Positions 41,485 to 57,712 of a DNA stretch of 64,000 nucleotides are shown here, piece after piece. This stretch comes from Thermoanaerobaculia bacterium (GTDB lineage: Bacteria > Acidobacteriota > Thermoanaerobaculia > Multivoradales > UBA5704). The notes below the pieces were generated by a model, which worked only from the letters and a program-made list of their open reading frames with translations, ran no database searches and had not been told where the DNA came from. How positions within the stretch are numbered: the stretch's first letter is position 1; each line of letters opens with the position of its first letter. The stretch is taken from assembly GCA_036002325.1 (NCBI GenBank), contig DASYTJ010000038.1, positions 10,665 through 74,664 of the forward strand, read 5' to 3'. A program made the translations under genes and the position numbers.

Positions 41485-42221
41485 AACGTTTTTGGATCCC
41501 TTCGCTGCTCGCGCTCTGCCTCGGCTCCGCCGCCGTCGCGGGCTCGTTCGAGGAGGCGATGAAGGCCGTCGCCGCCGGCAACGACGCGGCGGCCTTGCAG
41601 CTCTTCGAAGCGGCGCTCGCGACGGATCCGGATAACCTGCAAGCTTCCAACGAGTATCGCAAGGCCGTCATCCGCACCGGCCAGTACGACCGGGCCATCG
41701 ACTTCTACGGCAAGCTCACCGCTGCTCAGCCTCAGGCCGCCTTCGCCTGGCTGAACTACGGCTACGCTTACGTGGACAAGATCCCGGCCGCCGGCTCGAT
41801 CACGCGGGTGATCCTGGCCAACAACTCCATCACCAACTTCTCCAAGTCGATCGAGATCAAACGCACCTGGATCGCACTTTATACGCGGGGCAACGCCTAT
41901 CTTTACTGGCCCAAGGTCTTCGGCCGCGCGCCGCTCGCCGTGGCGGACCTCGAGGAGGCGGTGGCGATCGCCCGCAAGGAACCGCAGCGGAAGAAGGTCT
42001 ACGTCCGCGCCTGGATCGCCCTCGGCGACGGTTACTTGAAGACGGACCAGCCGGAGAAGGCGAAGGCGGTCTGGCGCGAGGCGCAGCAGCTCTTCGGGAA
42101 CCAACCGCAGCTCCAGGAGCGGCTCTCTCGCGACGGCGAGGAGTTGGAAAAGTACGTCTACGACCAGCTCGACCCCAACCTGCGGGTGAACACCGATCTG
42201 GCGCCGTTGTGGGAGGAGTGA
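41481..42221 (+). CDS. secreted TPR-like repeat protein
   Basis: Signal peptide. Helical repeats with A/L/Y/G pattern (AWLNYGYAYV, ALYTRGNAYLYW). Confidence 0.55.
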   Translation: MKRFWIPSLLALCLGSAAVAGSFEEAMKAVAAGNDAAALQLFEAALATDPDNLQASNEYRKAVIRTGQYDRAIDFYGKLTAAQPQAAFAWLNYGYAYVDKIPAAGSITRVILANNSITNFSKSIEIKRTWIALYTRGNAYLYWPKVFGRAPLAVADLEEAVAIARKEPQRKKVYVRAWIALGDGYLKTDQPEKAKAVWREAQQLFGNQPQLQERLSRDGEELEKYVYDQLDPNLRVNTDLAPLWEE

Positions 42222-42346
42222 GGGTGCTGTCGGAAGAGCCTCGAAGGGGTGGCGGCAGCTCGGGGCGTTCTGGGGGGGCGCAGTCGAAAGGATCTTGCCG
42301 AGCTCGGGCCTCCTTTTTCGGCATAAAGGTTGTGAATCGTTCCCCC

Positions 42347-42385
42347 TCGCCCGTCAGGGAGAGGGGGCCAGGGGGTGAGGCTTCG
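42347..42385 (+). repeat. REP-like dispersed repeat, copy A (TCGCCCGTCAGGGAGAGGGGGCCAGGGGGTGAGGCTTCG)
   Basis: Core of 23 bp or more identical to 48891-48931 and, in reverse orientation, to 54129-54145 and 59241-59264. Confidence 0.7.
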
Positions 42386-42409
42386 AAGGGCATACCCCTC
42401 CTACTTTCT

Positions 42410-44146
42410 ATGCTCCTCCTGATCTGCACCTCCCTCTTCGCCCAGGACCCAGGACCCAAGACCCAGGACCCTCCCCCCGCCAGCCCCATCCGCTTCGAGG
42501 AGATCTCCGATGCCGCCGGCGCCCGCCTCGTCCATCACACCCGTACCTTCCGAGGGAAGCACGCCGACGTGCTCGGCATGTTCACTTCCGGCGGCGCCGC
42601 GGTGGCGGTGGGGGACTACGACGGCGACGGCGACGATGACCTGTTCGTCACCGACTCCGCGGTGGGACAACCCAACCACTTACTGCGCAACGAGCTGCGG
42701 CCTTCGGGCAAGCTGGTCTTCACCGACGTGGCGCGCGAGGCCGGGGTCGCTGGAGGAAACGACGAGCGCGCCATCGTCTCCGATGCCCTGTGGTTGGACG
42801 CCGACAACGACGGCCGGCGCGATCTGCTGGTGGCCCGCTTCGGCGCGCCGCTGCTGTATCGGAATCTGGGGCGGGGAAGGTTTCGCGAGATGGCGAAGGA
42901 GGCCGGCCTCACGAAGTTCGGCAACACCATCGCCGCCATCGCCTTCGACTACGACAACGACGGCCGGCTCGACCTGCTGTTCGGCAATTACTTCCAGCCG
43001 GTCGACCTGACCGAGCTGCCGACGCCGCACGTCCTGCCCAACAACCTCGACAACGCGGTCAACGGCGGCGGCGTCACGCTGTGGCGCAACGTCACCGCAC
43101 CGGGCTCCGGCGAGCTTCGCTTCGTCGAGACGACGGCGAAGGCCGGCCTCGCTCATCACACCGGCTGGACTCTCGATCTCGGCCACGGCGATCTCAACAA
43201 CGACGGCTGGCAGGACCTCTATCTCGCGGTCGACTACGGCACCGACCGCCTCTTCTTCAACAACGGCGGCGGCACCTTCCGTGACGCCACGAAGGAGGCT
43301 GTCGGGTTCGACTCGCGCAAAGGGATGAACGTCGACGTCGCGGATTACGATCGCGACGGCTGGCTCGACATCTACGTCACGAACATCACCGACGAATACA
43401 TGAAAGAATGCAACATGCTCTGGCACAACGACGGCGACGGCACCTTCACCGACCTGGCGAAGGAGACCGGCACCTGCAATACGCTTTGGGGCTGGGGCGC
43501 CAAGTTCGGCGACTTCGACGGCGACGGCTGGGAGGACCTCTTCGTGATGAACGGCTTGCGCTCGGCCGGCCCAGAGAACTACATTCCGGTCCTCTTCGAG
43601 ATGATCGTCACGCCGGGCATCGACTTCACCGACGTCAACAGCTATCCGCCGATCGGTGCGATGAGCTGGAGCGGATATCAGCGCAAGAAGCTCTTCCGCA
43701 ATCTCGGCACGCAGGCCTTCAAGGAGATGGCGGCCGCGGCTGGGGTCGATAACGACCGCGACGGCCGCGGCATCGGCATGGCCGACTTCGACGACGACGG
43801 CCGGCTCGACCTCTATCAGACCAGCGTCGATCAGCCCGCGCTTTTGTATCGCAACGTCTCCCCGGCGCGCCACTGGCTCGAGCTGAAGCTCATCGGCACG
43901 AAATCGAACCGCGACGCCATCGGCGCCCGAGCCACCTTACGGGTCGGCGGCGCGACCCTGATCCGCGAGGTCAACGGCGGCAACGGCTACGCCAGCCAGA
44001 GCACCGTACGTCTTCATTTCGGATTGGGAGCGGCGGCGAAGGTCGATGCCGTCGAGATCCGCTGGCCGAGCGGGCGTGTCGAGAAGGTAGCCGTGCCGGT
44101 GGACCGGATCACCACGATCAAGGAAGGAACGGGGGTGGTGAAATGA
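42410..44146 (+). CDS. CRTAC1-family protein (FG-GAP + ASPIC/UnbV), copy 2
   Basis: Same architecture as copy 1 (DYDGDGDDDLFVTD..., ...RDAIGARATLRVGGATLIREVNGGNGYASQS). Start at ATG 42410, after the REP element. The ORF-track start at 42209 overlaps the TPR gene and is rejected. Confidence 0.8.
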   Translation: MLLLICTSLFAQDPGPKTQDPPPASPIRFEEISDAAGARLVHHTRTFRGKHADVLGMFTSGGAAVAVGDYDGDGDDDLFVTDSAVGQPNHLLRNELRPSGKLVFTDVAREAGVAGGNDERAIVSDALWLDADNDGRRDLLVARFGAPLLYRNLGRGRFREMAKEAGLTKFGNTIAAIAFDYDNDGRLDLLFGNYFQPVDLTELPTPHVLPNNLDNAVNGGGVTLWRNVTAPGSGELRFVETTAKAGLAHHTGWTLDLGHGDLNNDGWQDLYLAVDYGTDRLFFNNGGGTFRDATKEAVGFDSRKGMNVDVADYDRDGWLDIYVTNITDEYMKECNMLWHNDGDGTFTDLAKETGTCNTLWGWGAKFGDFDGDGWEDLFVMNGLRSAGPENYIPVLFEMIVTPGIDFTDVNSYPPIGAMSWSGYQRKKLFRNLGTQAFKEMAAAAGVDNDRDGRGIGMADFDDDGRLDLYQTSVDQPALLYRNVSPARHWLELKLIGTKSNRDAIGARATLRVGGATLIREVNGGNGYASQSTVRLHFGLGAAAKVDAVEIRWPSGRVEKVAVPVDRITTIKEGTGVVK

Positions 44147-47100
44147 GGCCGGCCCTCACCCTTCTCGGGCTCCTCCTCATGGCTGCCGCGCCGCCGCGGA
44201 CACCTCCGAACGACGAGCTCCTCTGGCACCATCGCAACCTCGGCAAGGCGTTCTACGAGAACCCGGCGACGCAGTATCAGGCGGTGGACGAGCTCAAGGC
44301 GGCGCTGGATCTGTCTCCCGACTCCGTCCGCGAGCGGCTCAACTACGGCCTCGCTCTGCTCCGGGCGGGCAAGACGGCCGAAGGCATCGCCGAGTTGGAG
44401 AAGGTGCAGAGGCAGGACCCGTCGCTCCCCCATACCTGGTTCAATCTCGGCATCGCCTACAAGCGCGCCGCCGACTACGACCGCGCCACCGCGCAGTTCG
44501 AAAGGTTGGTCGCGCTGGTCCCCGACGAACCGGTGGCGCGCTACAACCTCGGGGTGCTCTACAAGCTCGCCGGCAAGGCCGACCTCGCGCTGCGCCATTT
44601 CGAGGAAGCGGAGCGGCTCGCTCCCCATTTCGTGGGCCCCCACTTCCAGCTCTTCAACGCCTACCGGTTCGCCGGCCGCGAGGCAGACTCGAAGCGCGAG
44701 CTGGCCATCTTCCAGGAGGTCCGCAAGCAGCAGGAGGGCGCCGCCGTGCCCGAAGACCTGGAATGGAGCCGCTATGCCGAGCTCTACGACGAGCCCGAGC
44801 CGGCGAGCCCCGTTGCCCCGACCGTGCCGCCGAAATGGGAGGCCCGCGAGCTGAAGACGGGCCTCGACCCTGGGACGGCGGTGCTCGCCGTGCTCGACGC
44901 CGAGGGTGACGGCCGGCCGGATCTCCTCGCCGCCTCGGCGCTCGGCGCGGCCCTGTTCCGGCAGGGTACGGACCCGGTCGAGGCGAGCGGCCTCGCCGAG
45001 ATCCGGGGAGTCACGGGCGCGGCTCTCGGCGACTTCGACAACGACGGCCTGGCGGATCTCTGTCTGATCGCGGGCGGCGGCGCGTCGCTGTGGCGCAACG
45101 CCGGCGGACGATTCGAAAAGGTTTCTGTTCTGTTTCCTGCCGGCAAGTTCCGCGACGCCGTCTGGCTCGACTTCGATCACGATTACGACCTCGATCTGAT
45201 CCTGCTCGGAGAGAGCGCCGCTCTGCTGCGCAACCAGGGGACCGCCGGCTTCCAGGACGAGACGCGCCGGTTTCCTTTCGTGACCGGCAACGCGCTCGGC
45301 GCCGCGGTGCTGCACGTCGTCTCCGACACGCAGGGGATGGACCTCGCCGTGGCCTACGCGGACCGGCCGGGAGTGATCTACCGCGACCGGCTGGGCGGCA
45401 GTTATGAGGCCGAGACCGTAGCGGCGCTGCCCGCCGGGGCGGCGCCGCTCATGGCGGTCGACTTCAACGGCGACGGCTGGACCGACCTCGCCGCGGGCGC
45501 CACGGTGCTGGTCAACGGGCAGGGGAAAGGGTGGACGGCGGAGAAGCCCACGTCCGCACCTCCGTTCGTGCCGGCCGATCTGGACAACCGGGGGACCGTC
45601 TCGCTCGTCGCGGCTCCCCAGGGCTTCGCCGCTACGGCATTGGCGGCCGCCGATTTCGACGCCGACGGCCGGGTGGACCTTGCGGCGGCGGGGAAGGACG
45701 GCTCACTGAGGCTCTTCCGCAACGCCACGGAGACCGCCAATCGCTGGCTGGCCGTGCGTCTCGAAGGGGTCAAGAACCTGAAGCTCGCGGCCGGCGCGGA
45801 GATCGAGGTCAAGGCCGGCAAGCTGTATCAGAAGCGCAGCTATCAGGGAGTGCCCCTGATCTTCGGCTTGGGGGCTCGGAACGAGGCGGACGCCGTCCGC
45901 ATCACCTGGCCCAACGGGCTGATCCAGAACGAGACGCGCCAGGCCGCCGGCAAGCTCGCCGCCGATCTTTCCACCTATAAAGAAGCCCCCCGCCTCTCCG
46001 GCTCCTGTCCGATGATCTTCACCTGGAACGGCGAGCGGTTCGAGTTCATCACCGACGTGCTGGGCGTCGCGCCGCTCGGCGCTTCGGCGGGCGACGGCGA
46101 GTACTTTCCGGTGGATCACGACGAGCACGTGCGCATCCCCGGCGAGGCCCTGGCCGCCGTCGACGGCCACTATGAGGTGCGGATCACCGAGGAGCTGCGC
46201 GAGGTGGCCTATCTCGACCAGGTGCGCCTGATCGCCGTCGATCACCCGGAGGCGACGGAGGTCTTCACCAACGACAAGTTCCAGAGCCCGCCGTATCCCG
46301 AGCTGCGGCTTTACGGGATGGAGCGACGAGTGCGGCCTCTGGCGGCCCGCGACTCGCAGGGCAGAGACGTGCGCGACCGGCTTCTCGCCCGCGACCGGCG
46401 TTACCCGGACGACTTCCGCCGCACCTCCTCCGGCATTGCCGAGATGCACCATCTGGATCTCGATTTCGGCCGCGTTGCGCCGGACGGCCGCGCCCTGCTC
46501 GTGCTCTCCGGATGGGTGGACTGGGCCGACGGCAGCACCTTCCTCGGCGCCGCCCAGGAGGCGGGCGGCGGGCTGGTGATGCCGCGCCTGCAGGTCAAGG
46601 ACGCCGCCGGCCGCTGGGTGACGGTGCTCGAAGACATGGGCATTCCGGCCGGCAAGCCCAAAACGATCGTGGTGGACCTCACCGGCAAGTTCCTCTCCGA
46701 CTCTCGCGAGGTCCGCATCGAGACCAATCTCTGCGTGTATTGGGACGAGATCTTCCTGGCGGAAACGGCTGGGGAGACGCCGATGGAGCTGACCCCCATG
46801 GCGCCCATGACGGGCAACCTGCGCTTCCGCGGTTTCTCGCGGCCGGTGATCCATCCCGAGCGCAAGCAGCCGGAGAGCTTCGATTACCAGACGTGGATGC
46901 CGCTCTCGATGTGGAACCCCACGCCGGGGCTCTATACCCGCTATGGCGACGTGCGGCCGCTGCTCGCCGAGGTGGACGACCGCATGGTGGTCATGGGCTC
47001 TGGCGACGAGATCCGCCTGCGTTTCGACGCGCGTGCCCTGCCGGCCCTGCCCGCCGGCTGGCGGCGCGATTTCCTGCTCAAGGTCGACGGCTGGGCCAAG

Positions 47101-47298
47101 GACGCCGACGCCAATACGGCCTTCTCGCAGAGTGTCGAGCCGCTGCCGTTCCACGCCATGAGCCGCTATCCCTATCCCGAGAGGGAGCGCTTCCCGGACG
47201 ACGAGGCGCACCGGAAGTACCGGGAGGAGTACAACACCCGGCCGGCGCTGCGGCTGATCCGGCCGTTGCAGCAGCCCGGCGATAAATCGCCGGGCTAA
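44143..47298 (+). CDS. large secreted protein: N-terminal TPR + FG-GAP repeats + ASPIC/UnbV domain + ~450 aa C-terminal domain of unknown function
   Basis: TPR helices (LNYGLALLRAGK...WFNLGIAYKRAADYDRA), FG-GAP (DFDNDGLADL, VDFNGDGWTDL, DFDADGRVDL), ASPIC/UnbV (WLAVRLEGVKNLKLAAGAEIEVKAGKLYQKRSYQG...GLG), then an unassigned tail from SGSCPMIFTWNGERFEF onward. Confidence 0.7.
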   Translation: MRPALTLLGLLLMAAAPPRTPPNDELLWHHRNLGKAFYENPATQYQAVDELKAALDLSPDSVRERLNYGLALLRAGKTAEGIAELEKVQRQDPSLPHTWFNLGIAYKRAADYDRATAQFERLVALVPDEPVARYNLGVLYKLAGKADLALRHFEEAERLAPHFVGPHFQLFNAYRFAGREADSKRELAIFQEVRKQQEGAAVPEDLEWSRYAELYDEPEPASPVAPTVPPKWEARELKTGLDPGTAVLAVLDAEGDGRPDLLAASALGAALFRQGTDPVEASGLAEIRGVTGAALGDFDNDGLADLCLIAGGGASLWRNAGGRFEKVSVLFPAGKFRDAVWLDFDHDYDLDLILLGESAALLRNQGTAGFQDETRRFPFVTGNALGAAVLHVVSDTQGMDLAVAYADRPGVIYRDRLGGSYEAETVAALPAGAAPLMAVDFNGDGWTDLAAGATVLVNGQGKGWTAEKPTSAPPFVPADLDNRGTVSLVAAPQGFAATALAAADFDADGRVDLAAAGKDGSLRLFRNATETANRWLAVRLEGVKNLKLAAGAEIEVKAGKLYQKRSYQGVPLIFGLGARNEADAVRITWPNGLIQNETRQAAGKLAADLSTYKEAPRLSGSCPMIFTWNGERFEFITDVLGVAPLGASAGDGEYFPVDHDEHVRIPGEALAAVDGHYEVRITEELREVAYLDQVRLIAVDHPEATEVFTNDKFQSPPYPELRLYGMERRVRPLAARDSQGRDVRDRLLARDRRYPDDFRRTSSGIAEMHHLDLDFGRVAPDGRALLVLSGWVDWADGSTFLGAAQEAGGGLVMPRLQVKDAAGRWVTVLEDMGIPAGKPKTIVVDLTGKFLSDSREVRIETNLCVYWDEIFLAETAGETPMELTPMAPMTGNLRFRGFSRPVIHPERKQPESFDYQTWMPLSMWNPTPGLYTRYGDVRPLLAEVDDRMVVMGSGDEIRLRFDARALPALPAGWRRDFLLKVDGWAKDADANTAFSQSVEPLPFHAMSRYPYPERERFPDDEAHRKYREEYNTRPALRLIRPLQQPGDKSPG

Positions 47299-47358
47299 AA
47301 TCGCCAACCGTCCCGCTTTTGGCCATGCCTGCACTTATTAAGCGAACGGGCGCTGCGG

Positions 47359-48408
47359 GTGCGGCGAGACGCAGGAGGTGCGGTCGTGGCCATCAGAGTC
47401 GTCAGTTACGAAGAGATCCGCCGGCTGGTGCGGCTGGAAGACGTCATCGCGCCGGTCCGCGAATCGTTCAAGAGCTACTCGCTGGGCCGGGCCAACATCC
47501 CGCCGGTCCAGCATCTCGAGATGCCCGCTCGCCAGGGCGGGGCGCTGCACATCAAGACCGGGCACGTCGAGCCGCTCGACTTCTGCCTGGTGAAGGTCGC
47601 CTCGACGTTCCCCGAGAATACGCGGCGGGTGCCTCCCAGCCCGTCGATCAACGGCGCGATCATGGTGTTCAGCGCCGTCGACGGCGAGCCCCTCGCGCTG
47701 CTCGAGGACCGGGCCTGGATCACTCAGGCGCGGACCGGAGGCGCCGGCGCCGTGGCGGCCGAGCTGCTGGCGCGCCCCGGCGCCGCGACGCTCGGAGTGA
47801 TCGGCTCCGGCACGCAGGCCCGGCTGCAGGCCACTGCGATCCTCCACGTCCTGCCGGATCTCCGTAAGCTCGTGACCTGGGGCCGGTCGGCGGAGAAGGC
47901 CCGGCAGTTCGCCGCGGACATGAGCGCCTCCTATCCCTTCCTCGCCGTCGAGGCCGTGGAGAATCCCGAGCAAGCCGTCCGCGCCGCGGACATTCTCGTG
48001 ACGACCACGTATGCCGCGGAGCCCATCGTGCGCGGCGAGTGGCTCCCCGAGGGGGTGCTGGTCATCGGCATGGGCGCGGACTCCATCCACAAGCGGGAGC
48101 TCGATCCCGGGACCCTTCTGCGGGCTGACAAGGTGTACGTCGACAGCCGCTCGCAGAACGAGATCCTGGCCGAGATCGGTCACGGCCTCCGTGAAGGCCT
48201 GTTCGACGCCGGCCGCATCGACGGCGAGATCGGCGATCTCCTGGCGGACGGCGTCGCCGCGGGCCGGATGTCGGACCGCGAGCGCATCGTCTGCAAGCTG
48301 ACCGGCGTGGCCGTGCAGGAGGTCTTCGTCTGCGACTACCTGCTGCGCAGCCTCGGGATCACCGGCCGCAGGCGCGAGACGGCGGAGGTTCTGGCGGCGG
48401 CGTCGTAG
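47359..48408 (+). CDS. ornithine cyclodeaminase/mu-crystallin family protein
   Basis: Rossmann region GVIGSGTQARLQATAIL and the overall OCD_Mu_crystallin pattern. Confidence 0.8.
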   Translation: MRRDAGGAVVAIRVVSYEEIRRLVRLEDVIAPVRESFKSYSLGRANIPPVQHLEMPARQGGALHIKTGHVEPLDFCLVKVASTFPENTRRVPPSPSINGAIMVFSAVDGEPLALLEDRAWITQARTGGAGAVAAELLARPGAATLGVIGSGTQARLQATAILHVLPDLRKLVTWGRSAEKARQFAADMSASYPFLAVEAVENPEQAVRAADILVTTTYAAEPIVRGEWLPEGVLVIGMGADSIHKRELDPGTLLRADKVYVDSRSQNEILAEIGHGLREGLFDAGRIDGEIGDLLADGVAAGRMSDRERIVCKLTGVAVQEVFVCDYLLRSLGITGRRRETAEVLAAAS

Positions 48409-48521
48409 GCAAAACGCTACATAGTTCAAGGCCCCGACACCTCAACGGAGGAGCTGTGCTAGCCGTACCTTTGTACGGCATCTCGTAAACGCGACGGACG
48501 TCACCGATGGAGGTGAGAAAA

Positions 48522-48761
48522 ATGAAATTGCTACGGCTGGTGGGACTGGTTTCGCTCTTCGCCGTCTGTTTGATGCTGATGCCATCCGCAGGCGTCGAGA
48601 CCGCTCGTGCCGCCGCTACTGGTTATGGGTGTTATGCGGATTGTTGCGGCGGAGGGTGGGCTATGGGCGTTGGCGACACCGTCGACCAAGCATACCAAAC
48701 CCTCGACTGTGGAAGATACGGTGTGTGCGGGACGATCGAGTGTGAGCAGATAAATTATTAG
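48522..48761 (+). CDS. small Sec-secreted cysteine-rich peptide (79 aa precursor, ~50 aa mature, 7 Cys)
   Basis: Perfect SD GGAGGTGA 7 nt upstream of ATG 48522. Signal peptide MKLLRLVGLVSLFAVCLMLMPSAGVETARA|AATG. Mature part GYGCYADCCGGGWAMGVGDTVDQAYQTLDCGRYGVCGTIECEQINY. Low-GC gene in a high-GC genome. Confidence 0.5.
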   Translation: MKLLRLVGLVSLFAVCLMLMPSAGVETARAAATGYGCYADCCGGGWAMGVGDTVDQAYQTLDCGRYGVCGTIECEQINY

Positions 48762-48890
48762 CGCCCCCACTTCATGATTCATCTTGACGTGACCGGGTGA
48801 GACCTGCTGGACGGGCTTGATCCCCAGGAGCGGGCCCGTCCCCCGGTTCCGGGACCGCTCCTGATGCTTCGCTCCGCGCCAGGGTAGGCG

Positions 48891-48931
48891 GCTCGCCCGT
48901 CAGGGAGAGGGGGACAGGGGGTGAGGCTTCG
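48891..48931 (+). repeat. REP-like dispersed repeat, copy B, immediately 3' of Omp85-like paralogue 1
   Basis: GCTCGCCCGTCAGGGAGAGGGGGACAGGGGGTGAGGCTTCG. One mismatch to copy A over 39 bp. Confidence 0.7.
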
Positions 48932-48949
48932 CGCGCAGACGGCCAGGCT

Positions 48950-50734
48950 TCAGAACGTATCCCTGGTCGTCACCAGCCACTGCACCCGTTCGATCGAGCG
49001 GTTGGCGTCCAGGGGAAACGCGACGTCGAGGTGCAGGACGGCGCCGCGGGAGGAGCGGCTGGAGCCGAGGCGCAGGCCGAGGCCGGCGTCCTTGAGAATC
49101 CGGCGCTCCTGGGCGGCGAGCTTGGGGTCCCGCTGCGACCGGGGGTTCACGAACCAGGCCTGGCCGGCGTCGAAGAAGACGGCGGCACCCAGGTGGACGA
49201 GGTGGAAGAGCTCGCGGTCGCTGAAGAACCGCTGCTCGAGCGTGAGCAGGACGCGGCGGTCGCCGGCCTGGTAGCGGAGGGGATAGCCGCGCAGCCCGCT
49301 GTCGCCGCCGAGCAGGAGCTGGTCTTCGCCGTCGAGGCGGTGGGCTAGGTCGGCGCCGAGCGCGGCGTAGAAGACCTGGTCACCGAAGTCGCGCGCGTAC
49401 CAGCGCACCTTGCCGCCGGCCACCAGGTCCTCGGCGTCGCCGTCCGCCCAGCGGGTGGAGCCGCCGAGCTGGGCGAGGACGAGCTGGCGCCGGGTGGGCC
49501 GCCAGCCGGTGGAGGCCGCGCTCTGGACGATCCAGCGCTCGCCGTCGCCGCCGAAGGCCGGGGAGGACAAGCCGAGGAGGAGGTTGAACTGCCGGCCGAG
49601 GTTGAGGTCCTCCGAGCGCTGGATGCGGTCGAGATCTCGCTCCACCACGAAGCGGTCCTGCACCGACTCGAAGCTGATCCAGGGGTAGGCGAGCCGGCGG
49701 TCGGGCGGCAGGGTAACCAGCTTCGGAATGGAGGAGGAGGCCTTGAAGGCAGACCGCGAGAACTTCGACGACAGCGTGAACGCGTCGTCCGACCAGGTGA
49801 AGCCGAAGCGCAGCCGCCGCGCCGCGCCCTCCCGGAGGCCGCTCGAGAGGCCGCCGTAGATCTCCAGGAACTCGTGCTCATGGTTGAAGCCGACGATGGC
49901 CTTGCCGGCGGTATAGAGCTGCTCGAGGCGGTCGTCGCGGAACGCGCGCACGCCCGCCGCCCAGCGCGAGCTGAGCGAGTAGAAGGGCCGCTCCAGCTCG
50001 AAGCGCTCCCGCCCGCCGTCGCTGTTGTCGGCATAGGAGAGGGTCAGCCGGACGCGGCTCCCGAGCAGGTTGGGATCGCGGTAGCGGACGAGGTTCGAGG
50101 TGCGGTCCACCGTCCCGATGCGCGAGATGGAGAGCTCTTTACCGGTGCCCAGGACGTTGGTGTCCTCCACCCACAGGCTCGTGTTGTTGGCGCCGCCCGA
50201 GCGGCTGAAGCTGGCGCCGCCCTCCAGCGTCCAGACGTCGCGGGTGGTCACCTCCACGTCCACCTTGCCGTCCTCGCGCAGCACCGGACGGATGTCCACG
50301 TCGTAGAGATAGTCGTTCTGCCGCAGCAGGCGCGCGGACTCGGCGATCAGCTCGGGAGAGAACACGTCGCCCGGCTTGAAGAGGAGCTGCCGCTCGATCA
50401 CCCCCGGGCGGGTGGAGCGGTGCACCTGGTTCGCCAGCCGGAACAGCCGGCCGTCTTCGCCGGGCTTCTCCGGATCAAAGAGGTCCTGGGCGACGACGCG
50501 CACCTCGCCGATGACGCTCCCCGGCGGAATCGCCGGAGCGCCCCGGACCTCGATGCCGGTAGCCAGGACCGGGGGCCGCGAAGCCCGCAGCCAGGAGGAG
50601 AGATTCGGGGACGGCTGCGCCGCTCCTGGATCGGGATGGGCCAGGAACAAGGCGCCGACAAGCGCACTGGCGGCCGTCAGCCGGCAGACACGGTCAAAGA
50701 CTGGCGGGCGGCGGACGCCGCGGCTCGAATCCAT
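48950..50734 (-). CDS. Omp85-superfamily outer-membrane beta-barrel protein with a single POTRA-like domain (BamA/TamA/TpsB-like), paralogue 1
   Basis: Signal peptide, POTRA-like segment (GEVRVVAQDLFDPEKPGEDGRLFRLANQVH...FKPGDVFSPELIAESARLLRQNDYLYDVDIRPV), barrel with LRGYPLRY loop-6-like motif, C-terminal ...TTRDTF. Confidence 0.6.
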   Translation of the reverse strand: MDSSRGVRRPPVFDRVCRLTAASALVGALFLAHPDPGAAQPSPNLSSWLRASRPPVLATGIEVRGAPAIPPGSVIGEVRVVAQDLFDPEKPGEDGRLFRLANQVHRSTRPGVIERQLLFKPGDVFSPELIAESARLLRQNDYLYDVDIRPVLREDGKVDVEVTTRDVWTLEGGASFSRSGGANNTSLWVEDTNVLGTGKELSISRIGTVDRTSNLVRYRDPNLLGSRVRLTLSYADNSDGGRERFELERPFYSLSSRWAAGVRAFRDDRLEQLYTAGKAIVGFNHEHEFLEIYGGLSSGLREGAARRLRFGFTWSDDAFTLSSKFSRSAFKASSSIPKLVTLPPDRRLAYPWISFESVQDRFVVERDLDRIQRSEDLNLGRQFNLLLGLSSPAFGGDGERWIVQSAASTGWRPTRRQLVLAQLGGSTRWADGDAEDLVAGGKVRWYARDFGDQVFYAALGADLAHRLDGEDQLLLGGDSGLRGYPLRYQAGDRRVLLTLEQRFFSDRELFHLVHLGAAVFFDAGQAWFVNPRSQRDPKLAAQERRILKDAGLGLRLGSSRSSRGAVLHLDVAFPLDANRSIERVQWLVTTRDTF

Positions 50735-51119
50735 GCTGGGAACTCCTTGAACGACCGTCAGTTCGGTGGATCATAACCCAAGGCGCCCCGAAAGTATCGT
50801 GTAGCAGCATCTTTCAGGGAGCGGCAAAGTCGGCTGAGGTGGTCTCTTCTTCAGAAGGCACCTCTGTGTGGACGCTCCGGGGGGCGGGCAGCCATGTTGG
50901 GCTGCCTCGACATGGAATCTCCTTGTTCCGACGATTTTGGCGGAGCCTTCGGCTTGTTTCAGGGAGCGGCGACTGGCCTGACGGTCAGGGTCCTCCGACA
51001 CACGCGGCGGCGGGTCAGGATGAGGGTCCTGCGAGCCCATGCCGGGTCTCGGCACCGCAAGCTGAATCGCACCGCCGCGGGCTCGCGGGCCGGTTTTTTG
51101 TGTTCGTGGAGCGCCACCG

Positions 51120-51745
51120 TCAGATGACGGGACGATTTCTCAGATGACGGAGCGATACCGCCAGATGAGGGCGTGATTTCTGAGATGGCGGAGCCGCCCC
51201 GTCATCTGACGGAGCGCTTTCTGATCCTGGGGAGCGCCGCCCCATCCTGCGGCGTTGTTTCTGAGATGAGGGAGCGCCGCCGTCAGATAAGGGCGCGGAT
51301 TCTGAGATAACGGAGCGGCTCCCCCATCTGACGGAGCGCTTTCTCATCCTGGGGAGCGCCGCCGTCATCCTGGGGCGCCGTTTCTCAGATCAGGGAACCC
51401 CGCCGTCAGATGAGGGCGCGGTTTCTGAGATGACGGAGCGGCTCCCCCATCTGACGGAGCGCCTTCTTATCCTGGGGAGCGCCGCCGTCATCCTGGGGCG
51501 CCGTTCCTCAAATGGGGGAACCCCGCCGTCAGATGGGGGCGCGGTTTCTGAGATGACGGAGCGGCTCCCTCATCGGCGGAGCGCCTTCTCATCCTGGGGA
51601 ACGCCGCCGTCATCCTGGGGCGCCGTTTCTCAGATGGGGGAGTCCCGCCATCAGATGGGGGCGCGGTTTCTGAGATGATGGAGCGGCTCCCTCATCTGGC
51701 GGAGCGCCTTCTCATCCTGGGGAACGCCGCCGTCATCTGACGTAG
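51120..51745. repeat. tandem repeat array: ~5 units of ~120 bp, each built from alternating inverted copies of a GTCAGATGGGGG(C)GCG-like motif
   Basis: Unit starts at about 51304, 51424, 51544 and 51664 (85-95% identical), with degenerate copies from 51120. Both strands are interrupted by stops. Confidence 0.8.
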
Positions 51746-52000
51746 CGAGGCCGTCACTTGACGGAAAGGCACCACAAGGCTGTGGCGCGAGGCTGCGAGC
51801 TGCTGCGGTGCAAGCCGCGAAGCCTTATTGAGGAACCATTTAGAGCGACGAGAAGCTTGGGCGCCGGCACCCGAGCTCAGCCGCGGGCGCTCTAGCCTCC
51901 GTCGTAGCCCGCCTCGACGAGCGCCGCGAGCTTCGTTGAGCTTTAGCCTGCATGGCAGTACTGTCTTGGCGGCCGCGGCTCATGGAGGCAAGGAACACCT

Positions 52001-52396
52001 ATGGATAGGGCGGACTGCGTTTCGATAGAGGAAATGACGGCGGCGATTTGGGCGCGGCTCCTCGCCCAGTGGGAGGGCTGGAAGAACCAGGATCCGGCAC
52101 CCAATGACGCGATCATCGCCGATGACTTCCATTCCTTTTGGCCCGACGGCTCGCGCCATACAGGCAGGCCCACGGCACAGCAGATGGCCGAGCAGCCCAT
52201 TTCCGGGTACAAATTGTCAGAGTTCCGCGTCGTGCCGGTTGGCGCGGATACGGCGCTCGTCACGTACTTCGCCGATATCCATACTCCCGGCGACACTCCC
52301 GGCGACACCGAGCACCATATGGCCGTCGGAGAGGTCTGGGTGAAGCGCAACGGCCAGTGGCAAATCTGCGGCTACTCGGGCACGCTGATGAAGTAG
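52001..52396 (+). CDS. SnoaL-like/DUF4440 (NTF2-fold) protein
   Basis: ...ADDFHSFWPDGSRHTG...GADTALVTYFADIH...VGEVWVKRNGQWQICGYSGT pattern typical of DUF4440/NTF2-like proteins. Confidence 0.5.
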   Translation: MDRADCVSIEEMTAAIWARLLAQWEGWKNQDPAPNDAIIADDFHSFWPDGSRHTGRPTAQQMAEQPISGYKLSEFRVVPVGADTALVTYFADIHTPGDTPGDTEHHMAVGEVWVKRNGQWQICGYSGTLMK

Positions 52397-52402
52397 AGCC
52401 TC

Positions 52403-54085
52403 TCAGGGCCGCGCCCACCGCAGGCTCGCTCCCTCTCTCAGCCGCAGCTCCGGCGAGTAGGTGACCCAGCCGGCCGGCGAGACATATTCGATCCGCAAGG
52501 GCAGCACGTCGAGTCGGCCCACTTTGAAGCCGGCCCGCCGCGGCATGTCGTAGGCTTCGGCGCCGTCGGCCAGGACGAAGCGGTACCGGCCATCGTCGTA
52601 CGGTCCGAGATTCCAGAAGAGATCCTCGCCGGCGAAGCGGAAGGAGGCTTTCAGCGGAGCGCGGCGAATCGACGAGCAGTGCCGAGCCCGCAGAGCCGGA
52701 ATCGATGGCGCGAGGTCGACGATGCGATGCGAGGCCTCGTCATAACCCCAGACCCGCCCGAGCCGGCCGCGATGAACGCAAAGGTACAGGTCGTCCTGAA
52801 ACCAGCCCCCGCCCGGGGGACGATGAAAGACCGCTTCCTTCATCCACGCCAGCTCTCTGAGCGAGGCCGCCAGGGTGAGCGGATGCCGCAGAACGTCCTC
52901 TTTCCTCATTTCCAGGAGGAAGCGGTTCTCGGCGCTCATCCGTTCGACCCTGGCGAAGCGGACGGCCCAATCCTGGCGGTTCAGCCACAGGCCCGAAGCG
53001 CAGGCCGCAAGGGCGAGGGCCGCACCGGTCCGACGCCTCGCCGCGGCCAGCGTCCGGCAGCCGGCCGCGAAGGCGACCGCCACGACGAGCCACGCCGGCA
53101 GCGCGTAGCGCGGCTCCATCCGCGTCGAGACGGGCAGCGCCGGCAGCGCGGCGAGGATCAGCGCGAAGGCGAACAGGGCGGTTGCCTTCCAGCCTCGCAT
53201 CAGGAGAAGCGCCAGGATTCCCACGGCGAGAACGGCGCCGAAGAGGACCGCCGCCGGCGAGAGCCGTCCGCCCACGATCTGCGCAGCGATCTTGCCCGGC
53301 AGCTCCAGGGCGAGGCGCGGCAGGCTGGAGCCGCTCGCGATGAAACCGTAGCCGCCGAACGGCGTGCCCAGCACCGCGTAACGGAGACCCAGGTAGAGAA
53401 GGGCGGCCGCCGCGTGCGGCATCGCGAGACGCGATCGCTGCCGGAAACCGGACTGCGGGGCTCCCGCCGGAACCGGCAGGAAAGGAAGGACCGCCACGAA
53501 AGGTACCGCGATCTCCTTCGCCATGCAGGCGGCGAAGTAGAGCAGCGCCGAGAGCCACGTCCACCTCCAGGCTCGTCCCCCATTTCGATACAGCGCCGCG
53601 GCCCAGGCCGCCACGGCGAGCGCGGAGAGGAGGAGGGTCTCGACGTAGTGGTGCGCCAAAACGAGCGCCAGGGAAGCGGTGACCGGGCCGATAAGGAAGA
53701 GCCACGCTCCGGCCGCGGACCAGGAGCGCCGCAGCCAGAGGCGCAGGACGGCATAGAGCGCCGGCGGGCACAGAGACAGTGACAGGAGTTGATGCACGTA
53801 GAAGGGGCGGGGCTCGAGGCCGAACAGCCAGCGGTCCAGATCCAGCGAGAGGAAGAGCAGCGGCGTCAGCAGCCTGGAGGGGAAGTCGCGGTAGCCCGCC
53901 GAGTCGAAGATGTACCAGAGCGGGCGGTGGGTGAGCTGAAACCGCAGGTGAAAGAAATCGTCACCCGTCCACCAGAGCCGGAGGACGGAGCCGTACAGCA
54001 GCCACGCCGCGCCGGCCAGGGCCAGCAGGACGGCCCCTTCCGCCGCGGCCCGCCGAGCTTTGGCTTTGGGATGTTGCGCGAACAC
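52403..54085 (-). CDS. polytopic membrane protein, putative GT-C glycosyltransferase (ArnT/PMT/GT39-like)
   Basis: ~11-13 TM helices in the first 400 aa with a DDxxH-like WWTGDDFFHLRF near TM1 and a soluble C-terminal domain. Family call is tentative. Confidence 0.45.
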   Translation of the reverse strand: MFAQHPKAKARRAAAEGAVLLALAGAAWLLYGSVLRLWWTGDDFFHLRFQLTHRPLWYIFDSAGYRDFPSRLLTPLLFLSLDLDRWLFGLEPRPFYVHQLLSLSLCPPALYAVLRLWLRRSWSAAGAWLFLIGPVTASLALVLAHHYVETLLLSALAVAAWAAALYRNGGRAWRWTWLSALLYFAACMAKEIAVPFVAVLPFLPVPAGAPQSGFRQRSRLAMPHAAAALLYLGLRYAVLGTPFGGYGFIASGSSLPRLALELPGKIAAQIVGGRLSPAAVLFGAVLAVGILALLLMRGWKATALFAFALILAALPALPVSTRMEPRYALPAWLVVAVAFAAGCRTLAAARRRTGAALALAACASGLWLNRQDWAVRFARVERMSAENRFLLEMRKEDVLRHPLTLAASLRELAWMKEAVFHRPPGGGWFQDDLYLCVHRGRLGRVWGYDEASHRIVDLAPSIPALRARHCSSIRRAPLKASFRFAGEDLFWNLGPYDDGRYRFVLADGAEAYDMPRRAGFKVGRLDVLPLRIEYVSPAGWVTYSPELRLREGASLRWARP

Positions 54086-54128
54086 GGCGGGAGTTTACTG
54101 CCATAAATCGGCCGCATTGCCCGCGCGA

Positions 54129-54160
54129 CCTCACCCCCTGGCCCCTTCTACGTGAGGCTT
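54129..54160 (-). repeat. REP-like dispersed repeat, copy C (reverse orientation), immediately 3' of Omp85-like paralogue 2; forms a CCTCAC...GTGAGG hairpin
   Basis: CCTCACCCCCTGGCCCC is the reverse complement of the GGGGCCAGGGGGTGAGG core. Confidence 0.65.
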
Positions 54161-54206
54161 CCCTGTCCTTGTTGTCCTTGCTGTCCTTTGTGTCCTTGGT
54201 TTTCTA

Positions 54207-55916
54207 TCAGAACGTATCCTTGGTCGACACCAGCCACTGCAGGCTCTTGACGTCGCGGCCGCCGTCGAGCGGGAAGGCGAGGTCGAGGTGGACCATGGTG
54301 CCGCGGGCGGAGGAGCGGCTGGAGCCGATGCGCAGGCCGATGCCGACGTCCCGCAGCAGCTCCCGGTCAGCCGCGAGCTTGCCGTCGACATCCTGGAACC
54401 AGGCCGAGCCGGCGTCGAAGAAGACTGCGGCGCCCAGATGCGCGAGATGGAAGAGCTCCCGGTTGCTGAAGAACCGCTGCTCGACGGTGAACAGCACGCG
54501 GTTGTCGCCTTGCAGGTAGCGCAGAGGGTAGCCGCGCAGACCGGTGTCACCTCCGAGCAGGAGCTGGTTCTCAGGGTCGAGATCGTGCGCCACGTCCCAT
54601 CCCAGGCTGACGTAGAAGAGATTGTTGCCGAAGTCGCGGATGTAGTAACGGAGACGGCCGCCCACCAGCAGGTTCTCGGCCACGCTGCGGTTCATCCGCG
54701 AGCCGCCCTGCAACGACGCCAGCACGAGCTGGCGCGGGCTCAGCCGCCAGCCGACGGAGCCGCCGACGTCGGCGATCAGGCGGTTGGCGTCGCCGCCGAA
54801 GACGGGGGAGGACCAGCCGAGGCGCAGATGGTACTGCTGCCCCAGGTTCACGTCTTCGGTCCGCTCGAGGCGGTCGAGGTCGCGGACGGTGAAGTAGCCG
54901 TCGTTGACGAACTCGTAGCTCAGCCAGGGATAGGCCAGGGTGCGGTCCGCCGGTATCAGCGACGGAGGCTCGAAACCCTCGGCGGTCGAGAAGCGGTCTC
55001 TCTCATAGGTGAAGCCGGTGCGCCAGCGGTGGGTCGAGCGATTGGCAAGGCCGGGCGAGAGACCGGCGTAGACCTCGAAGGTGTCCTGCCGGTGCTGGAA
55101 CCGGTCGAAGACGTGGCCGCGGTCGTAGAGGGGATCCACCCGGTCGTCCAGGTTCGCCGACAGCCCCAACGCCCAGCGCGTGTCGAGAGAGTAGAACGGC
55201 CGTTCCAGCAGCAATCTCGCGACGGCGCCGTCGCTGTTGGCGGAGTAGGCGGTGTCGAGCCGGCCGTGAGTTCCGAAGAGGTTCGGGTCCCGGTACTCGA
55301 TAAGGTTGGCCGTGCGGTCGACCGAGGTCTGGTGGGATACCGAGATGGCTTTGCCGGTGCCGAGGAAGTTGATGTCCTCGACGTCGAAGTGGACGGTATT
55401 GGTGCCGCCCGACCGGCGGAAGCCGACTCCCCCTTGCAGGGTCCAGACGTCGCGGGTGACGACTTCGAGGTCCACCTCGCCCTCGCCAGTCGGTACCGGG
55501 CGAATCCTCGCGTCGTAGAGGTAGGGATTCTTCCGCAGGATCCTCTCGGACTCCGCCGCTTGCTCCTCGGAGTACTCGTCGCCGGGCCTGAGGAGCACCT
55601 GGCGCTCGATCACCTCCGGCCGCGTGACGAAGTGGAAGCGGTCCGCCAGCCGGAAGAGGAGCTTGTCCTCCCCGGGCTCTTCGAGATCGAAGATGTTCTC
55701 CGTGACGACGTGGATCTGCCGCACTTTGGGCGGCTCAGAGGTGGCGGGTTCCTGGACCGGCAGCGTCTCGAGGCTGGCGTCCGGCGGCGCCACCTGCTGG
55801 GCCGGTGCCGGCTGTGCGGGAATCAGCGTGAGACCGAGAAGGAAGGGACAAAACGACGAGATGCGACGGCTGCGGCGGGTCGGCGACATGACGAACGGCT
55901 CCTGTCCTCGCCGCAT
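54207..55916 (-). CDS. Omp85-superfamily outer-membrane protein, paralogue 2
   Basis: Collinear with paralogue 1 (IHVVTENIFDLEEPGEDKLLFRLADRFHFVTRPEVIERQVLLRPGDEYSEEQAAESERILRKNPYLYDARIRPV...; C-terminal ...STKDTF). The 3' flank CAGAACGTATCC(C/T)TGGTCG shared with paralogue 1 is visible at DNA level. Confidence 0.6.
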   Translation of the reverse strand: MRRGQEPFVMSPTRRSRRISSFCPFLLGLTLIPAQPAPAQQVAPPDASLETLPVQEPATSEPPKVRQIHVVTENIFDLEEPGEDKLLFRLADRFHFVTRPEVIERQVLLRPGDEYSEEQAAESERILRKNPYLYDARIRPVPTGEGEVDLEVVTRDVWTLQGGVGFRRSGGTNTVHFDVEDINFLGTGKAISVSHQTSVDRTANLIEYRDPNLFGTHGRLDTAYSANSDGAVARLLLERPFYSLDTRWALGLSANLDDRVDPLYDRGHVFDRFQHRQDTFEVYAGLSPGLANRSTHRWRTGFTYERDRFSTAEGFEPPSLIPADRTLAYPWLSYEFVNDGYFTVRDLDRLERTEDVNLGQQYHLRLGWSSPVFGGDANRLIADVGGSVGWRLSPRQLVLASLQGGSRMNRSVAENLLVGGRLRYYIRDFGNNLFYVSLGWDVAHDLDPENQLLLGGDTGLRGYPLRYLQGDNRVLFTVEQRFFSNRELFHLAHLGAAVFFDAGSAWFQDVDGKLAADRELLRDVGIGLRIGSSRSSARGTMVHLDLAFPLDGGRDVKSLQWLVSTKDTF

Positions 55917-55952
55917 GATACAGCCAAAGGTGCCCTCGCCTCCCTACGCCGG

Positions 55953-56363
55953 CTACGGTTCCAACCCTTGCGTGAGATCCCGAATGCGGGGCGCGAGCCG
56001 TTGGATCTCTTCGAGATGAGCCGCCGAAAGCCGCTGCAGGGTCTGGGCTCCCAGCGGGCTCAGGCGCAGGCGGACGATGCGGCGGTCTCCCGCATCCTCC
56101 TGCCGCTCCACGAGGCCCGCCTTCTCCGCCCGATCCACGAGCCCGACCGCGCTGTGGTGGCGCAGCATGAGATAGCCGGCGACGTCGCCGATGGTCGGAC
56201 CCCGATCGCCGTCGTGTCCGCGCACGGCGAGCAGGAGCTGGTGCTGGGCAGGCGTCAGCCCCGCTTTCTCCGCCTGCTCCTCGCTCCAGCGCAGAAAACG
56301 GCGCAGGTCGGTGCGGAACTGGAGAAGCCGCCGGTAGTCGGCGTCTTCCAGTTGGTTGGGCAT
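55953..56363 (-). CDS. MarR family transcriptional regulator
   Basis: winged-helix region LTPAQHQLLLAVRGH...IGDVAGYLMLRHHSAVGLVDRAEKAGLVERQEDAGDRRIVRLRLSPLG. Confidence 0.85.
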   Translation of the reverse strand: MPNQLEDADYRRLLQFRTDLRRFLRWSEEQAEKAGLTPAQHQLLLAVRGHDGDRGPTIGDVAGYLMLRHHSAVGLVDRAEKAGLVERQEDAGDRRIVRLRLSPLGAQTLQRLSAAHLEEIQRLAPRIRDLTQGLEP

Positions 56364-56529
56364 GGAGTCAGTGTATCGCAGGCGACCGTCGTGCTACGAT
56401 GCATCGCGTCGCGATACAAGCGGCGAGCCCGAGGTCTCCGTGAAAGCTCAGACAGCCCTGCGAATTTATCGGGGATCTGCGCTCCGAAGCCTACCGGCGA
56501 AATTTTCACAGACTCCAAAGGAGAGGGGA

Positions 56530-57711
56530 TTAACGAGCCGGCCACGCCTTCTGCTGCGCCAGCGTCGCCTCCCAGTGCGCCTTGAGCTCGGCCATCGAGT
56601 CGCCGCCCAGCTTTTCGAGGAGCGCGTCGGCGAGCACCAGGGCCACCATGGCCTCGGCGATGACGCCGGCGGCGGGGAGGGCGGTGACGTCGCTGCGCTC
56701 GTACTGCGAGGCGTGCGGCTCCAGGGTGTCGAGGTCGACGCTCGGCAATCCCTTGCGCAGGGTGGAGATGGGCTTCTTGTAGGCAGTAAGGACGAGGTCC
56801 TCGCCGTTGGTGACGCCGCCTTCGAGTCCGCCGGCGCGGTTGGTGGGGCGCGTCCAGCGGCCGTCCGCCGAGCGCTCGATGGCGTCGTGGGCGGCGCTGC
56901 CGAAACCGCGGCAGGCTTCGAGGGCGGCGCCGATCTCCACCGCCTTCACCGCCGGCACGGAGAGGAGCGCCTGGGCGAGGCGGCCGTCGAGCTTCTCGTT
57001 CCATTGTACGTGGGAGCCGAGCCCCGCCGGCACGTTGTGAGCGATGACGGTCACCGCGCCCCCGAGCGTGTCTCCTTCCTCTTTGGCCTGCTCCACGAGA
57101 CGGACCATTTCCGGCTCCAGCGAGCGGTCGATGGCGCGCAGGGGCGAGGTCTCGTCGACCTGTTGGAGATCGTCCCAGGTGGGGACCGGCCGGCCGGCGC
57201 CGACGGAGCCCAGGAAGCGCACGCCGCTGCGGATCTCGACCCCGAACTCGGCGAGGAGCATGCGAGCGAAGGCGCCGGCCGCGACGCGGGCGGTGGTCTC
57301 GCGGGCGGAGGCCCGTTCGAGGATGTCGCGCAGGTCTTGCCGTTGATACTTGAGACCGCCGGCGAGGTCCGCGTGGCCCGGCCGCGGCGCCTTGAGCCGC
57401 CGGTTCTCGGCGAGCCGCGGATCGACCGCCTCCGGCCCCATCACGCCTTCCCAGTTGGCGTAGTCGCGGTTGGCGATCCACAGGACGATGGGGGAGCCGA
57501 GGGTTTCGCCGCCGCGCACGCCGCCGCGGATCTCGGCCGTGTCCTTCTCGATCTGCATCCGCCGGCCCCGCCCGAAGCCATGTTGACGGCGGGCCAGGTC
57601 GCGCGCGAGGAGGTCGAAGTCCACGCGAATTCCGGCGGGCATGCCCGTGAGGATCGCGGTGAGGCCGGGGCCGTGGCTCTCGCCGCCGGTGGTCAGCTCG
57701 AGCCGGCGCAT
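56530..57711 (-). CDS. aroC: chorismate synthase
   Basis: TTGGESHGPGLTAILTGMPAGI...RHQGFGRGRRMQIE...GGRSSARETxxRVAAGA-type motifs throughout. Confidence 0.95.
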   Translation of the reverse strand: MRRLELTTGGESHGPGLTAILTGMPAGIRVDFDLLARDLARRQHGFGRGRRMQIEKDTAEIRGGVRGGETLGSPIVLWIANRDYANWEGVMGPEAVDPRLAENRRLKAPRPGHADLAGGLKYQRQDLRDILERASARETTARVAAGAFARMLLAEFGVEIRSGVRFLGSVGAGRPVPTWDDLQQVDETSPLRAIDRSLEPEMVRLVEQAKEEGDTLGGAVTVIAHNVPAGLGSHVQWNEKLDGRLAQALLSVPAVKAVEIGAALEACRGFGSAAHDAIERSADGRWTRPTNRAGGLEGGVTNGEDLVLTAYKKPISTLRKGLPSVDLDTLEPHASQYERSDVTALPAAGVIAEAMVALVLADALLEKLGGDSMAELKAHWEATLAQQKAWPAR

Positions 57712-57712
57712 G

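Follow-up and report, generated by a model that had tools for sequence, protein, structure and literature searches.

Intergenic repeats in a Thermoanaerobaculia bacterium probably belong to the BoxC/PIT/TM family of triplex-motif elements

BoxC is listed among the known repeat families of Escherichia coli (PMC2267715). The element received this name in the 1990s, was renamed PIT (potential intrastrand triplex element) in 2000 (see Hoyne & Maher 2000, as cited in PMC4666352), and is now described as TMECO, a class II purine-motif sequence with 23 copies in E. coli, for example CCCTCGCCCCTTTGGGGAGAGGGCCGGGGTGAGGGG, and 3610 copies in 262 proteobacterial genomes (Holder et al. 2015, PMC4666352). 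The TMECO consensus is CCCTCNCCC N3-6 GGGNGAGGG N3 GGGNGAGGG, and all copies lie between genes and have no preferred orientation; some form inverted (tandem) pairs, for which small internal deletions have been described (PMC4666352). In vitro, CD and NMR revealed very stable triplexes in single strands of TMECO; neither duplex DNA nor DMS footprinting in vivo gave a triplex signal (PMC4666352). TMECO loci vary more from strain to strain than do control intergenic sites, and they show no association with transposons, phages or plasmids (PMC4666352). According to the summaries of earlier work given in that paper, the PIT elements of E. coli have no promoter or terminator activity (Hoyne & Maher 2002, as cited in PMC4666352), and purine-motif triplexes do not form in RNA. 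Other G/C-rich triplex motifs have been reported from cyanobacteria and a few other groups.

The window, that is, the whole 64-kb stretch of DNA analysed here, carries four sites that we consider to be BoxC/PIT/TM repeats, two intact and two decayed, acting at the DNA level as selfish or structural elements and not as terminators or RNA signals (probability about 0.8). The purine arm and the tail of the repeat are mirror images; this relation raised the idea of a fold-back triplex, which in turn led to the match with the elements of Holder et al. 2015 (PMC4666352). The window copies are colinear with four TMECO sequences (Table 1 of PMC4666352). Both have the same order of pyrimidine arm, loop, purine arm, 3-nt loop and mirror purine strand, both have the cores CTC(T/G)C / GAGAG / GTGAG, which agree with the TMECO core pattern CTCNC ... 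GNGAG ... GNGAG, and both include a T-to-G variant, CTCGCC, that introduces a G.A mismatch. As in the BoxC/PIT/TM family, the copies are intergenic and without strand bias, they occur as singlets and inverted pairs, and their loci are locally unstable. The two differ in the G-runs, which are 5+2 with 10 triads in the window variant and 3+3 with 9 triads in TMECO, and in the second loop, which is CCA or ACA here and TTA or CCG in E. coli. They also differ in their hosts, since the variant is found in Acidobacteriota, Chloroflexota, Gemmatimonadota, Bacteroidota and others and TMECO in Proteobacteria. In Thermoanaerobaculia, unlike TMECO, the variant sits in a doublet of about 190 nt with conserved ends of its own (CTGCCCTTCGAAG). 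The strict TMECO consensus has no match in the window because the G-runs are 5+2 and not 3+3, and the window repeats are therefore a sister variant and not TMECO itself. We found no description of the 10-triad variant in the searchable literature. In full-text papers, the exact sequence and its 12-mers led only to eukaryotic work unrelated to the repeat, and the accessible part of the supplementary material of Holder et al. (PMC4666352) mentions neither the variant nor its host phyla. The family itself is not new; what is added here is the 10-triad variant with its hosts and its spread over phyla, which extends the record without changing it.

The repeat was detected through the 23-mer GGAGAGGGGGCCAGGGGGTGAGG (= GGAGAGGGGG[C/A]CAGGGGGTGAGG). 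When three mismatches were allowed, this 23-mer was found at four sites in the window: copy A at 42358-42380 (+ strand, no mismatch), copy B at 48904-48926 (+, one mismatch), copy C at 54129-54151 (-, two mismatches, reading GTAGAAGGGG...) and copy D at 59252-59274 (-, no mismatch). The chance expectation was 0.01 matches, and none of 100 dinucleotide-preserving shuffles reached four. The original prediction of a recurrence beyond chance is thus borne out, together with the view that this is a dispersed, repetitive, extragenic element, and the intergenic position of all four copies holds against the Pfam-supported genes. Other details of that prediction were right only in part. It had counted four exact copies, but only A and D are exact. 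It had placed copy C at 54129-54145, where the start is correct and the end is 54151, and copy D at 59241-59264, whereas this 23-mer lies at 59252-59274 and its hairpin extends to 59293-59296. Copies A and B do differ at a single position within their common sequence CTCGCCCGTCAGGGAGAGGGGG[C/A]CAGGGGGTGAGGCTTCG, as claimed over 39 bp. Hairpins had been proposed at C and D; both are present, but only that of D is significant (12 bp, z = -3.7), and the CCTCAC...GTGAGG pairing of copy C is no better than shuffles (z = -0.5).

The flanks of 132 exact copies, from the window and the other loci, show that the unit is about 45 nt long and that the 23-mer is only its 3' two-thirds. The unit reads (G)TT/C-CCCCCTCTCC, a variable loop, GGAGAGGGGG, (C/A)CA and GGGGGTGAGG. 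In a full copy the pyrimidine arm is CCCCCTC(T/G)CC and pairs with GGAGAGGGGG as a 10-bp hairpin, whereas the tail GGGGGTGAGG is the mirror image of the purine arm and not its complement. A complementary 5' arm lies at most 60 nt away in 123 of the 129 exact copies examined for it (118 genome loci), and in 95 it is a perfect CCCCCTCTCC. Neither the sequence nor the length of loop 1 is fixed; lengths of 4-9 nt are the most usual, and 21-23 nt is a second mode. The stem often runs 1-3 pairs into this loop (CG 57, AT 30, GC 13, TA 7), and these varied pair types indicate that the hairpin is maintained while the loop drifts.

Copies A and D retain the whole unit. In copy A (42342-42380, +), recovered as an intact motif by the class II scan described below, the pyrimidine arm CCCCCTCGCC (42342-42351) is followed by loop 1, CGTCAG (between 42351 and 42358), the purine arm GGAGAGGGGG (42358-42367), loop 2, CCA, and the mirror third strand GGGGGTGAGG (42371-42380). 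Its hairpin (-12 kcal/mol, z = -1.7) contains one G.A mismatch at the same relative position as in the E. coli 'mm' types. The 3' flank CTTCGAAGGGCA (42381-42392, +) is lineage-specific, being common to Thermoanaerobaculia copies, and forms the outer end of a doublet unit. Alignment to the complete doublets of L104, L036 and L109 identifies copy A as the right half of such a doublet, preceded at approximately 42240-42341 (+) by the spacer, with the palindrome TCTTGCCG...CGGCA(T/A)AA, and by a decayed left half. Copy A is located between a TPR gene (41481-42221, +) and an FG-GAP/ASPIC gene (42410-44146, +), both Pfam-supported. Copy D (59252-59296, -) reads GT-TCCCCTCTCC-AGCTCCGCT-GGAGAGGGGG-CCA-GGGGGTGAGG and was identified by the motif scan and by folding. 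Its 12-bp hairpin (CCCCTCTCCAGC / GCTGGAGAGGGG) has an energy of -15.4 kcal/mol (z = -3.7), and none of 200 shuffles was as good; all folding values come from a nearest-neighbour model that covers the hairpin only and not the third strand. Copy D is 8 nt past the stop codon of a YkuD transpeptidase gene (59304-60053, -) and lies 66 nt ahead of the start of an RNase II gene (57713-59185, -).

Copies B and C are degenerate. Copy B (48892-48931, +) keeps the purine arm (48904-48913), the loop ACA, the third strand (48917-48926) and a CTTCG flank; it forms no hairpin (z = -0.5) because the C-run of the 5' arm has been lost. It is 24 nt past the stop codon of an Omp85-like gene (48950-50734, -), in a convergent gap. 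Copy C (54129-54151, -) consists of GTAGAAGGGG-CCA-GGGGGTGAGG without a 5' arm. It is 56 nt past the stop codon of a second Omp85 paralogue (54207-55916, -) and 44 nt ahead of the start of an unknown gene (52403-54085, -). A stop codon is found just upstream of all four copies, at 8-137 nt for three of them and, for B, at 24 nt on the opposite strand, and copies A, C and D are 29-66 nt upstream of start codons. These starts raised the possibility of a promoter or 5'-UTR role, which was rejected, as no sigma-70-like promoters were found between 42000 and 60500 and the orientation of the element is unbiased.

The triplex architecture was examined with a class II scan modelled on ITxF. The scan requires a pyrimidine arm and a complementary purine arm separated by 3-12 nt (loop 1) and then, after a further 1-6 nt (loop 2), a third strand; it accepts G·G-C, A·A-T or T·A-T triads and allows at most one mismatch in total. 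In the window it returned exactly copies A (42342-42380) and D (59252-59293), each with 10 triads, one Watson-Crick mismatch and no triad mismatch, and it found no motif in 20 Markov-1 random windows. B and C are not returned because they have lost the 5' arm. We also compared 68 copies that lay outside the selection imposed by the scan pattern. In 66 of them arm and tail have G-runs of equal length, or the tail run is one G longer where the linker ends in G; the mean after permutation was 42, and none of 10000 permutations gave as many as 66. The same rule is obeyed by 34 of the 36 distinct (arm, linker, tail) types, across many linkers. Matched G-runs are what a fold-back register requires, and this agreement suggests a structural constraint on the sequence. 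The co-variation of arm and tail could also partly reflect subfamily descent rather than selection on structure. By analogy with the E. coli homologue, the window variant would fold into a hairpin with a reverse-Hoogsteen third strand. A G-quadruplex was considered and rejected, as the imino spectra of the homologue are inconsistent with one (Holder et al., PMC4666352). The sequence GGAGAGGGGG-CCA-GGGGGTGAGG also resembles H-DNA, in that it is a purine-rich mirror repeat with the same reverse-Hoogsteen triads. Unlike in H-DNA, the Watson-Crick partner arm of the element is on the same strand, so that the whole triplex would be contained in one single strand without duplex melting.

In Thermoanaerobaculia the unit is usually an inverted, head-to-head doublet of about 190 nt, which reads CTGCCCTTCGAAG-CCTCACCC..hairpin, a spacer with the palindrome TCTTGCCG..CGGCAAGA, and hairpin..GGTGAGG-CTTCGAAGGGCAG. 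Separate insertions are improbable for copies B and C, which align to the two halves of one inverted doublet in a related MAG. In this MAG, L104, the complete doublet follows closely after an Omp85 homologue; the alignment pairs copy B with the gene-proximal half and copy C with the gene-distal half. Directly next to copy C, GTGAGGCTTCCC (54152-54163, +) may be what is left of the opposite, gene-proximal half, namely its tail and flank. Here CCTCACCCCCTGGCCCCTTCTAC abuts GTGAGGCTTCCC, from which it appears that the middle of the doublet was removed by an internal deletion. The two Omp85 genes of the window are paralogues that are 71-76% identical, and copies B and C probably represent one ancestral doublet that was copied together with the Omp85 gene and then eroded differently. 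This erosion fits the small internal deletions described in the TM pairs of Holder et al. (PMC4666352).

For copy D, the comparison is with L124, the nearest relative with conserved YkuD-RNase II synteny, whose RNase II has 85% amino-acid identity. A 106-nt block containing copy D (59202-59307, -) is absent from the same junction in L124, as a single gap in an affine-gap alignment. The junction lies within the final Gly codon of YkuD. There the block contributes A+TAG, of which the A completes the Gly codon and TAG is a new stop, so that the YkuD C-terminus is KYAG followed by the stop in both the window and L124. The unit of copy D is clearly an indel, and in this comparison of two taxa it is either an insertion in the window lineage or a precise loss in L124. 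The suggestion that the element may be mobilisable is upheld to this extent: with copy D lying in a cleanly delimited block of 106 nt, the element is likely to move, or at any rate to be readily inserted and deleted. L036, which is 88% identical to window positions 621-5230, was also tried as an empty-site comparison; it was uninformative because its synteny ends at the gene stop. Correia/NEMIS and RPE-type MITEs are miniature insertion elements that preserve ORF ends. The block of copy D resembles them in regenerating the Gly and stop codons of YkuD, but differs from them in that neither a target-site duplication nor terminal inverted repeats are evident at its junction. We know of no cognate transposase for a block of this type.

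The exact 23-mer was also scanned in one genome per GTDB species, and the host groups were tallied from record titles. It is present in at least 118 stretches from about 11 phylum-level groups, and the element is therefore not specific to one genome, contrary to what had been proposed. Among the matches listed, 41 stretches belong to Acidobacteriota (34 of them to Thermoanaerobaculia), 30 to Chloroflexota, 25 to Gemmatimonadota, seven to Bacteroidota, including the isolate Hymenobacter sp. CA2-7, and three to Armatimonadota. Planctomycetota, SAR324 and Desulfamplus (Desulfobacterota) contribute two stretches each to the same matches, Ignavibacteria, Oscillibacter (Bacillota) and Patescibacteria one each, and three stretches are unclassified. 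The unit of about 45 nt stands out as a GC-rich island in AT-rich contigs (L024, L047, L048, L055). The same letters, at least 33 of them conserved, form such islands in AT-rich contigs of Bacteroidales, Oscillibacter and Patescibacteria, and also in a few viral contigs. In IMG/VR only four contigs contain the exact 23-mer, and all four carry complete units. A megablast search of plasmids with a 57-nt consensus gave no match, although the low-complexity filter may have masked the query.

The position of the element relative to genes was analysed with a crude, heuristic GC3-based gene caller, which was checked against the Pfam-supported genes of the window. Among 117 family copies with two called neighbours, the G-rich strand is the sense strand in 27 co-directional gaps (>E>) and the C-rich strand in 32 (<E<), and the other copies are found in 40 convergent and 18 divergent gaps. 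About 31 of 194 copies fall inside called ORFs by these heuristic calls. The element thus avoids divergent, promoter-bearing gaps, as do many intergenic repeats, and has no polarity relative to transcription.

The original prediction regarded the sequence as REP-like and pointed to a REP-associated tyrosine transposase (RAYT) elsewhere in the genome; on this reading it would be a REP/REPIN palindrome mobilised by a RAYT encoded once per genome. Our data share several features with such elements: the copies are small GC-rich intergenic hairpins in high copy number and in both orientations, often as inverted doublets, they prefer gene 3' ends, and convergent gaps are enriched and divergent gaps depleted among them. 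GTT (44) or GTC (22) stands just before the hairpin arm in 66 of 123 copies, which loosely recalls the CGTC-tagged palindromes of Di Nocera et al. 2013 (PMC3733652). The CGTC consensus fits only some copies. The GTAG tag is absent, and the main text of Di Nocera et al. 2013 (PMC3733652) contains none of the sequence motifs seen here; the CGTC repeats themselves are not associated with transposase genes (PMC3733652). The conserved 3' mirror tail is also foreign to REPs. Furthermore, the sequence is nearly identical across about 11 phylum-level groups, whereas known REP families are usually species- or clade-specific. An all-against-all BLAST of the ORFs in the flanks revealed no enriched gene family, and the best cluster covered six of 119 sources. 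With no family in more than six of the 119, nothing appears to be encoded alongside the element, and no linked transposase was seen. TMECO, too, is not associated with mobile elements (PMC4666352). We consider a REP/RAYT origin quite unlikely; the element matches another known family, BoxC/PIT/TM.

Another possibility is that the repeat is the binding site of a conserved DNA-binding protein with a role in the nucleoid, repair or recombination, and that its sequence is conserved for recognition by this protein and not for a triplex. Across phyla the loops differ, whereas the lower stem and the tail, with the T of GTGAGG, do not change. At the T of GGGGGTGAGG there is almost no variation, yet A would do as well in a triplex, which hints at sequence-specific protein recognition. 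In addition, the triplex of the E. coli homologue was not detected in vivo (PMC4666352). Against this, dimeric proteins normally read inverted repeats and not mirror symmetry, and the matching of arm and tail G-runs across many linkers is a prediction of the fold-back register. The flanks contain no linked candidate protein, and we know of none that binds the repeat. A protein site as the main explanation is therefore a poor prospect.

A function in RNA has equally little to recommend it. The original prediction was that the element probably acts as a terminator or an mRNA-stability element; in transcribed form it would be an intrinsic terminator or a 3' stabilising hairpin that protects upstream mRNAs. 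It is in favour of this that all four copies are just downstream of a stop codon, that copy D has a strong 12-bp hairpin and that gene 3' ends are the commoner neighbours across loci. In the region 42000-60500, however, a terminator scan found six terminator-like sites, none of them at a copy; no T-run follows the hairpins, and the tails of the window copies are G-rich, unlike those of intrinsic terminators. The two co-directional orientations are equally frequent (27 and 32), which argues against a strand-specific RNA signal, since such a signal would show a bias. A terminator would need neither the invariant stem sequence nor the mirror tail. Rfam gave no match in the whole window at gathering thresholds, and for copy D at E <= 10 it gave only hairpin noise against miRNA models. 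The inability of purine-motif triplexes to form in RNA and the inactivity of PIT as terminator or promoter in E. coli, as summarised in PMC4666352, are also against this function.

BoxC/PIT/TM elements acting at the DNA level are thus the preferred explanation, and a mechanism can be proposed for them. When a strand becomes single-stranded, as on the lagging-strand template, in a repair gap or in a transcription bubble, the first two blocks of the unit would form a hairpin, and the third block would fold back into the major groove of this hairpin, antiparallel to the purine arm. Ten reverse-Hoogsteen triads would result, eight of the type G·G-C and one each of A·A-T and T·A-T, and the product of the fold would be a class II purine-motif intrastrand triplex. 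The element would act as a selfish or structural repeat of the DNA and not as a terminator or RNA signal. Units occupy intergenic gaps in either orientation, often as inverted doublets, are gained or lost as small blocks and decay through internal deletions. From the behaviour of the E. coli homologue, transient folding during replication or repair may underlie the local instability. The units may spread through a process acting in trans.

A more speculative idea is that a non-autonomous mobile element is at work: the 10-triad variant would be spreading actively across phyla, inserted by a trans-acting enzyme that recognises the folded triplex shape of single-stranded DNA. We regard this as doubtful. 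Under such a reading, the 106-nt block would have entered the last codon of YkuD in this way. If true, this would be the first mobile DNA with a triple helix as its recognition signal, and it would account for a repeat family that has been unexplained since its description in E. coli.

For the annotation of these genomes, our results mean that such sites should be labelled BoxC/PIT-type triplex-motif repeats and not terminators, REPs or small ORFs. For the family, they add a 10-triad variant of nearly constant sequence, with hosts in about 11 phylum-level groups that include uncultured lineages from soil. The matched arm and tail lengths and the clean indel strengthen the ideas that the fold-back register is selected and that the units move.

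The YkuD gene beside copy D (59304-60053, minus strand), one of the four triplex-motif units of the window, has the same C-terminus with or without the block that holds this copy. Its coding sequence ends in GGA TAG in the window (59304-59307) and in GGC TGA at about 1127-1131 of L124, a relative that lacks the block. Because the C-terminus is unchanged across this indel, the data suggest either that the junction is under selection or that the inserted or deleted block brings its own stop codon.

The triplex-motif unit also occurs as a subfamily in which loop 1 is 21-23 nt long, as in CGGGTGGGCGGGAGTGCGATG. These units were found in Thermoanaerobaculia and Holophagales, at L020, L022, L039, L045, L069, L072, L075 and L106 among other loci. 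The long loop 1 ends in GGGAGAT directly 5' of the purine arm, so that part of the arm appears to have been duplicated internally. Such a duplication could make two alternative hairpin registers possible. Length class also differs between the two halves of some doublets, the inverted head-to-head pairs of units (L014, L026, L029, L064 and L108). In the left half the G runs are three long, GGAGAGGG-ACCGA-GGGTGAGG, against five in the right half; the match between arm and tail is kept inside each half.

The minus strand carries a pair of Omp85/POTRA paralogues (48950-50734 and 54207-55916), each followed by a remnant of a triplex-motif doublet. The paralogues are offset by about 5.2 kb, and over the greater part of the two genes their DNA is 71-76% identical, as recorded in repeat families D4, D5, D10 and D20. 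An array spanning roughly 640 nt of non-coding DNA (51108-51747) lies between the two genes, preceded by a terminator-like hairpin at 51075-51088. Its units, each roughly 20 nt long, contain TCAGATGA(C/G)GG or the complement CC(C/G)TCATCTGA, and their orientation alternates along the array. A higher-order period of 123 nt (about five copies, 90% identity) contains a sub-period of 41 nt. The array resembles an iteron or binding-site array.

Three successive FG-GAP/VCBS-repeat genes of the ASPIC/UnbV type occupy 39697-47298, interrupted only by a TPR gene and copy A, and have numerous internal DNA repeats (families D2, D3, D7 and D9). A repeat of the GGACCCAGGACCCAAGACCC type makes up a 33-nt inverted repeat at 5306-5392, with arms of 82% complementarity separated by 21 nt. 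A similar string at 42447-42470 belongs to the FG-GAP gene next to copy A, in the stretch coding for the N-terminal part of its product (...QDPGPKTQDP...).

The exact 23-mer was also found, in complete hairpin-plus-tail units, on four predicted viral contigs in IMG/VR (L119-L122). Their GC content is 59-65%, and two of the four have the loop GAACCGCAGTTCA in common. These contigs could be merely host-derived DNA, or they could be vehicles of transfer.
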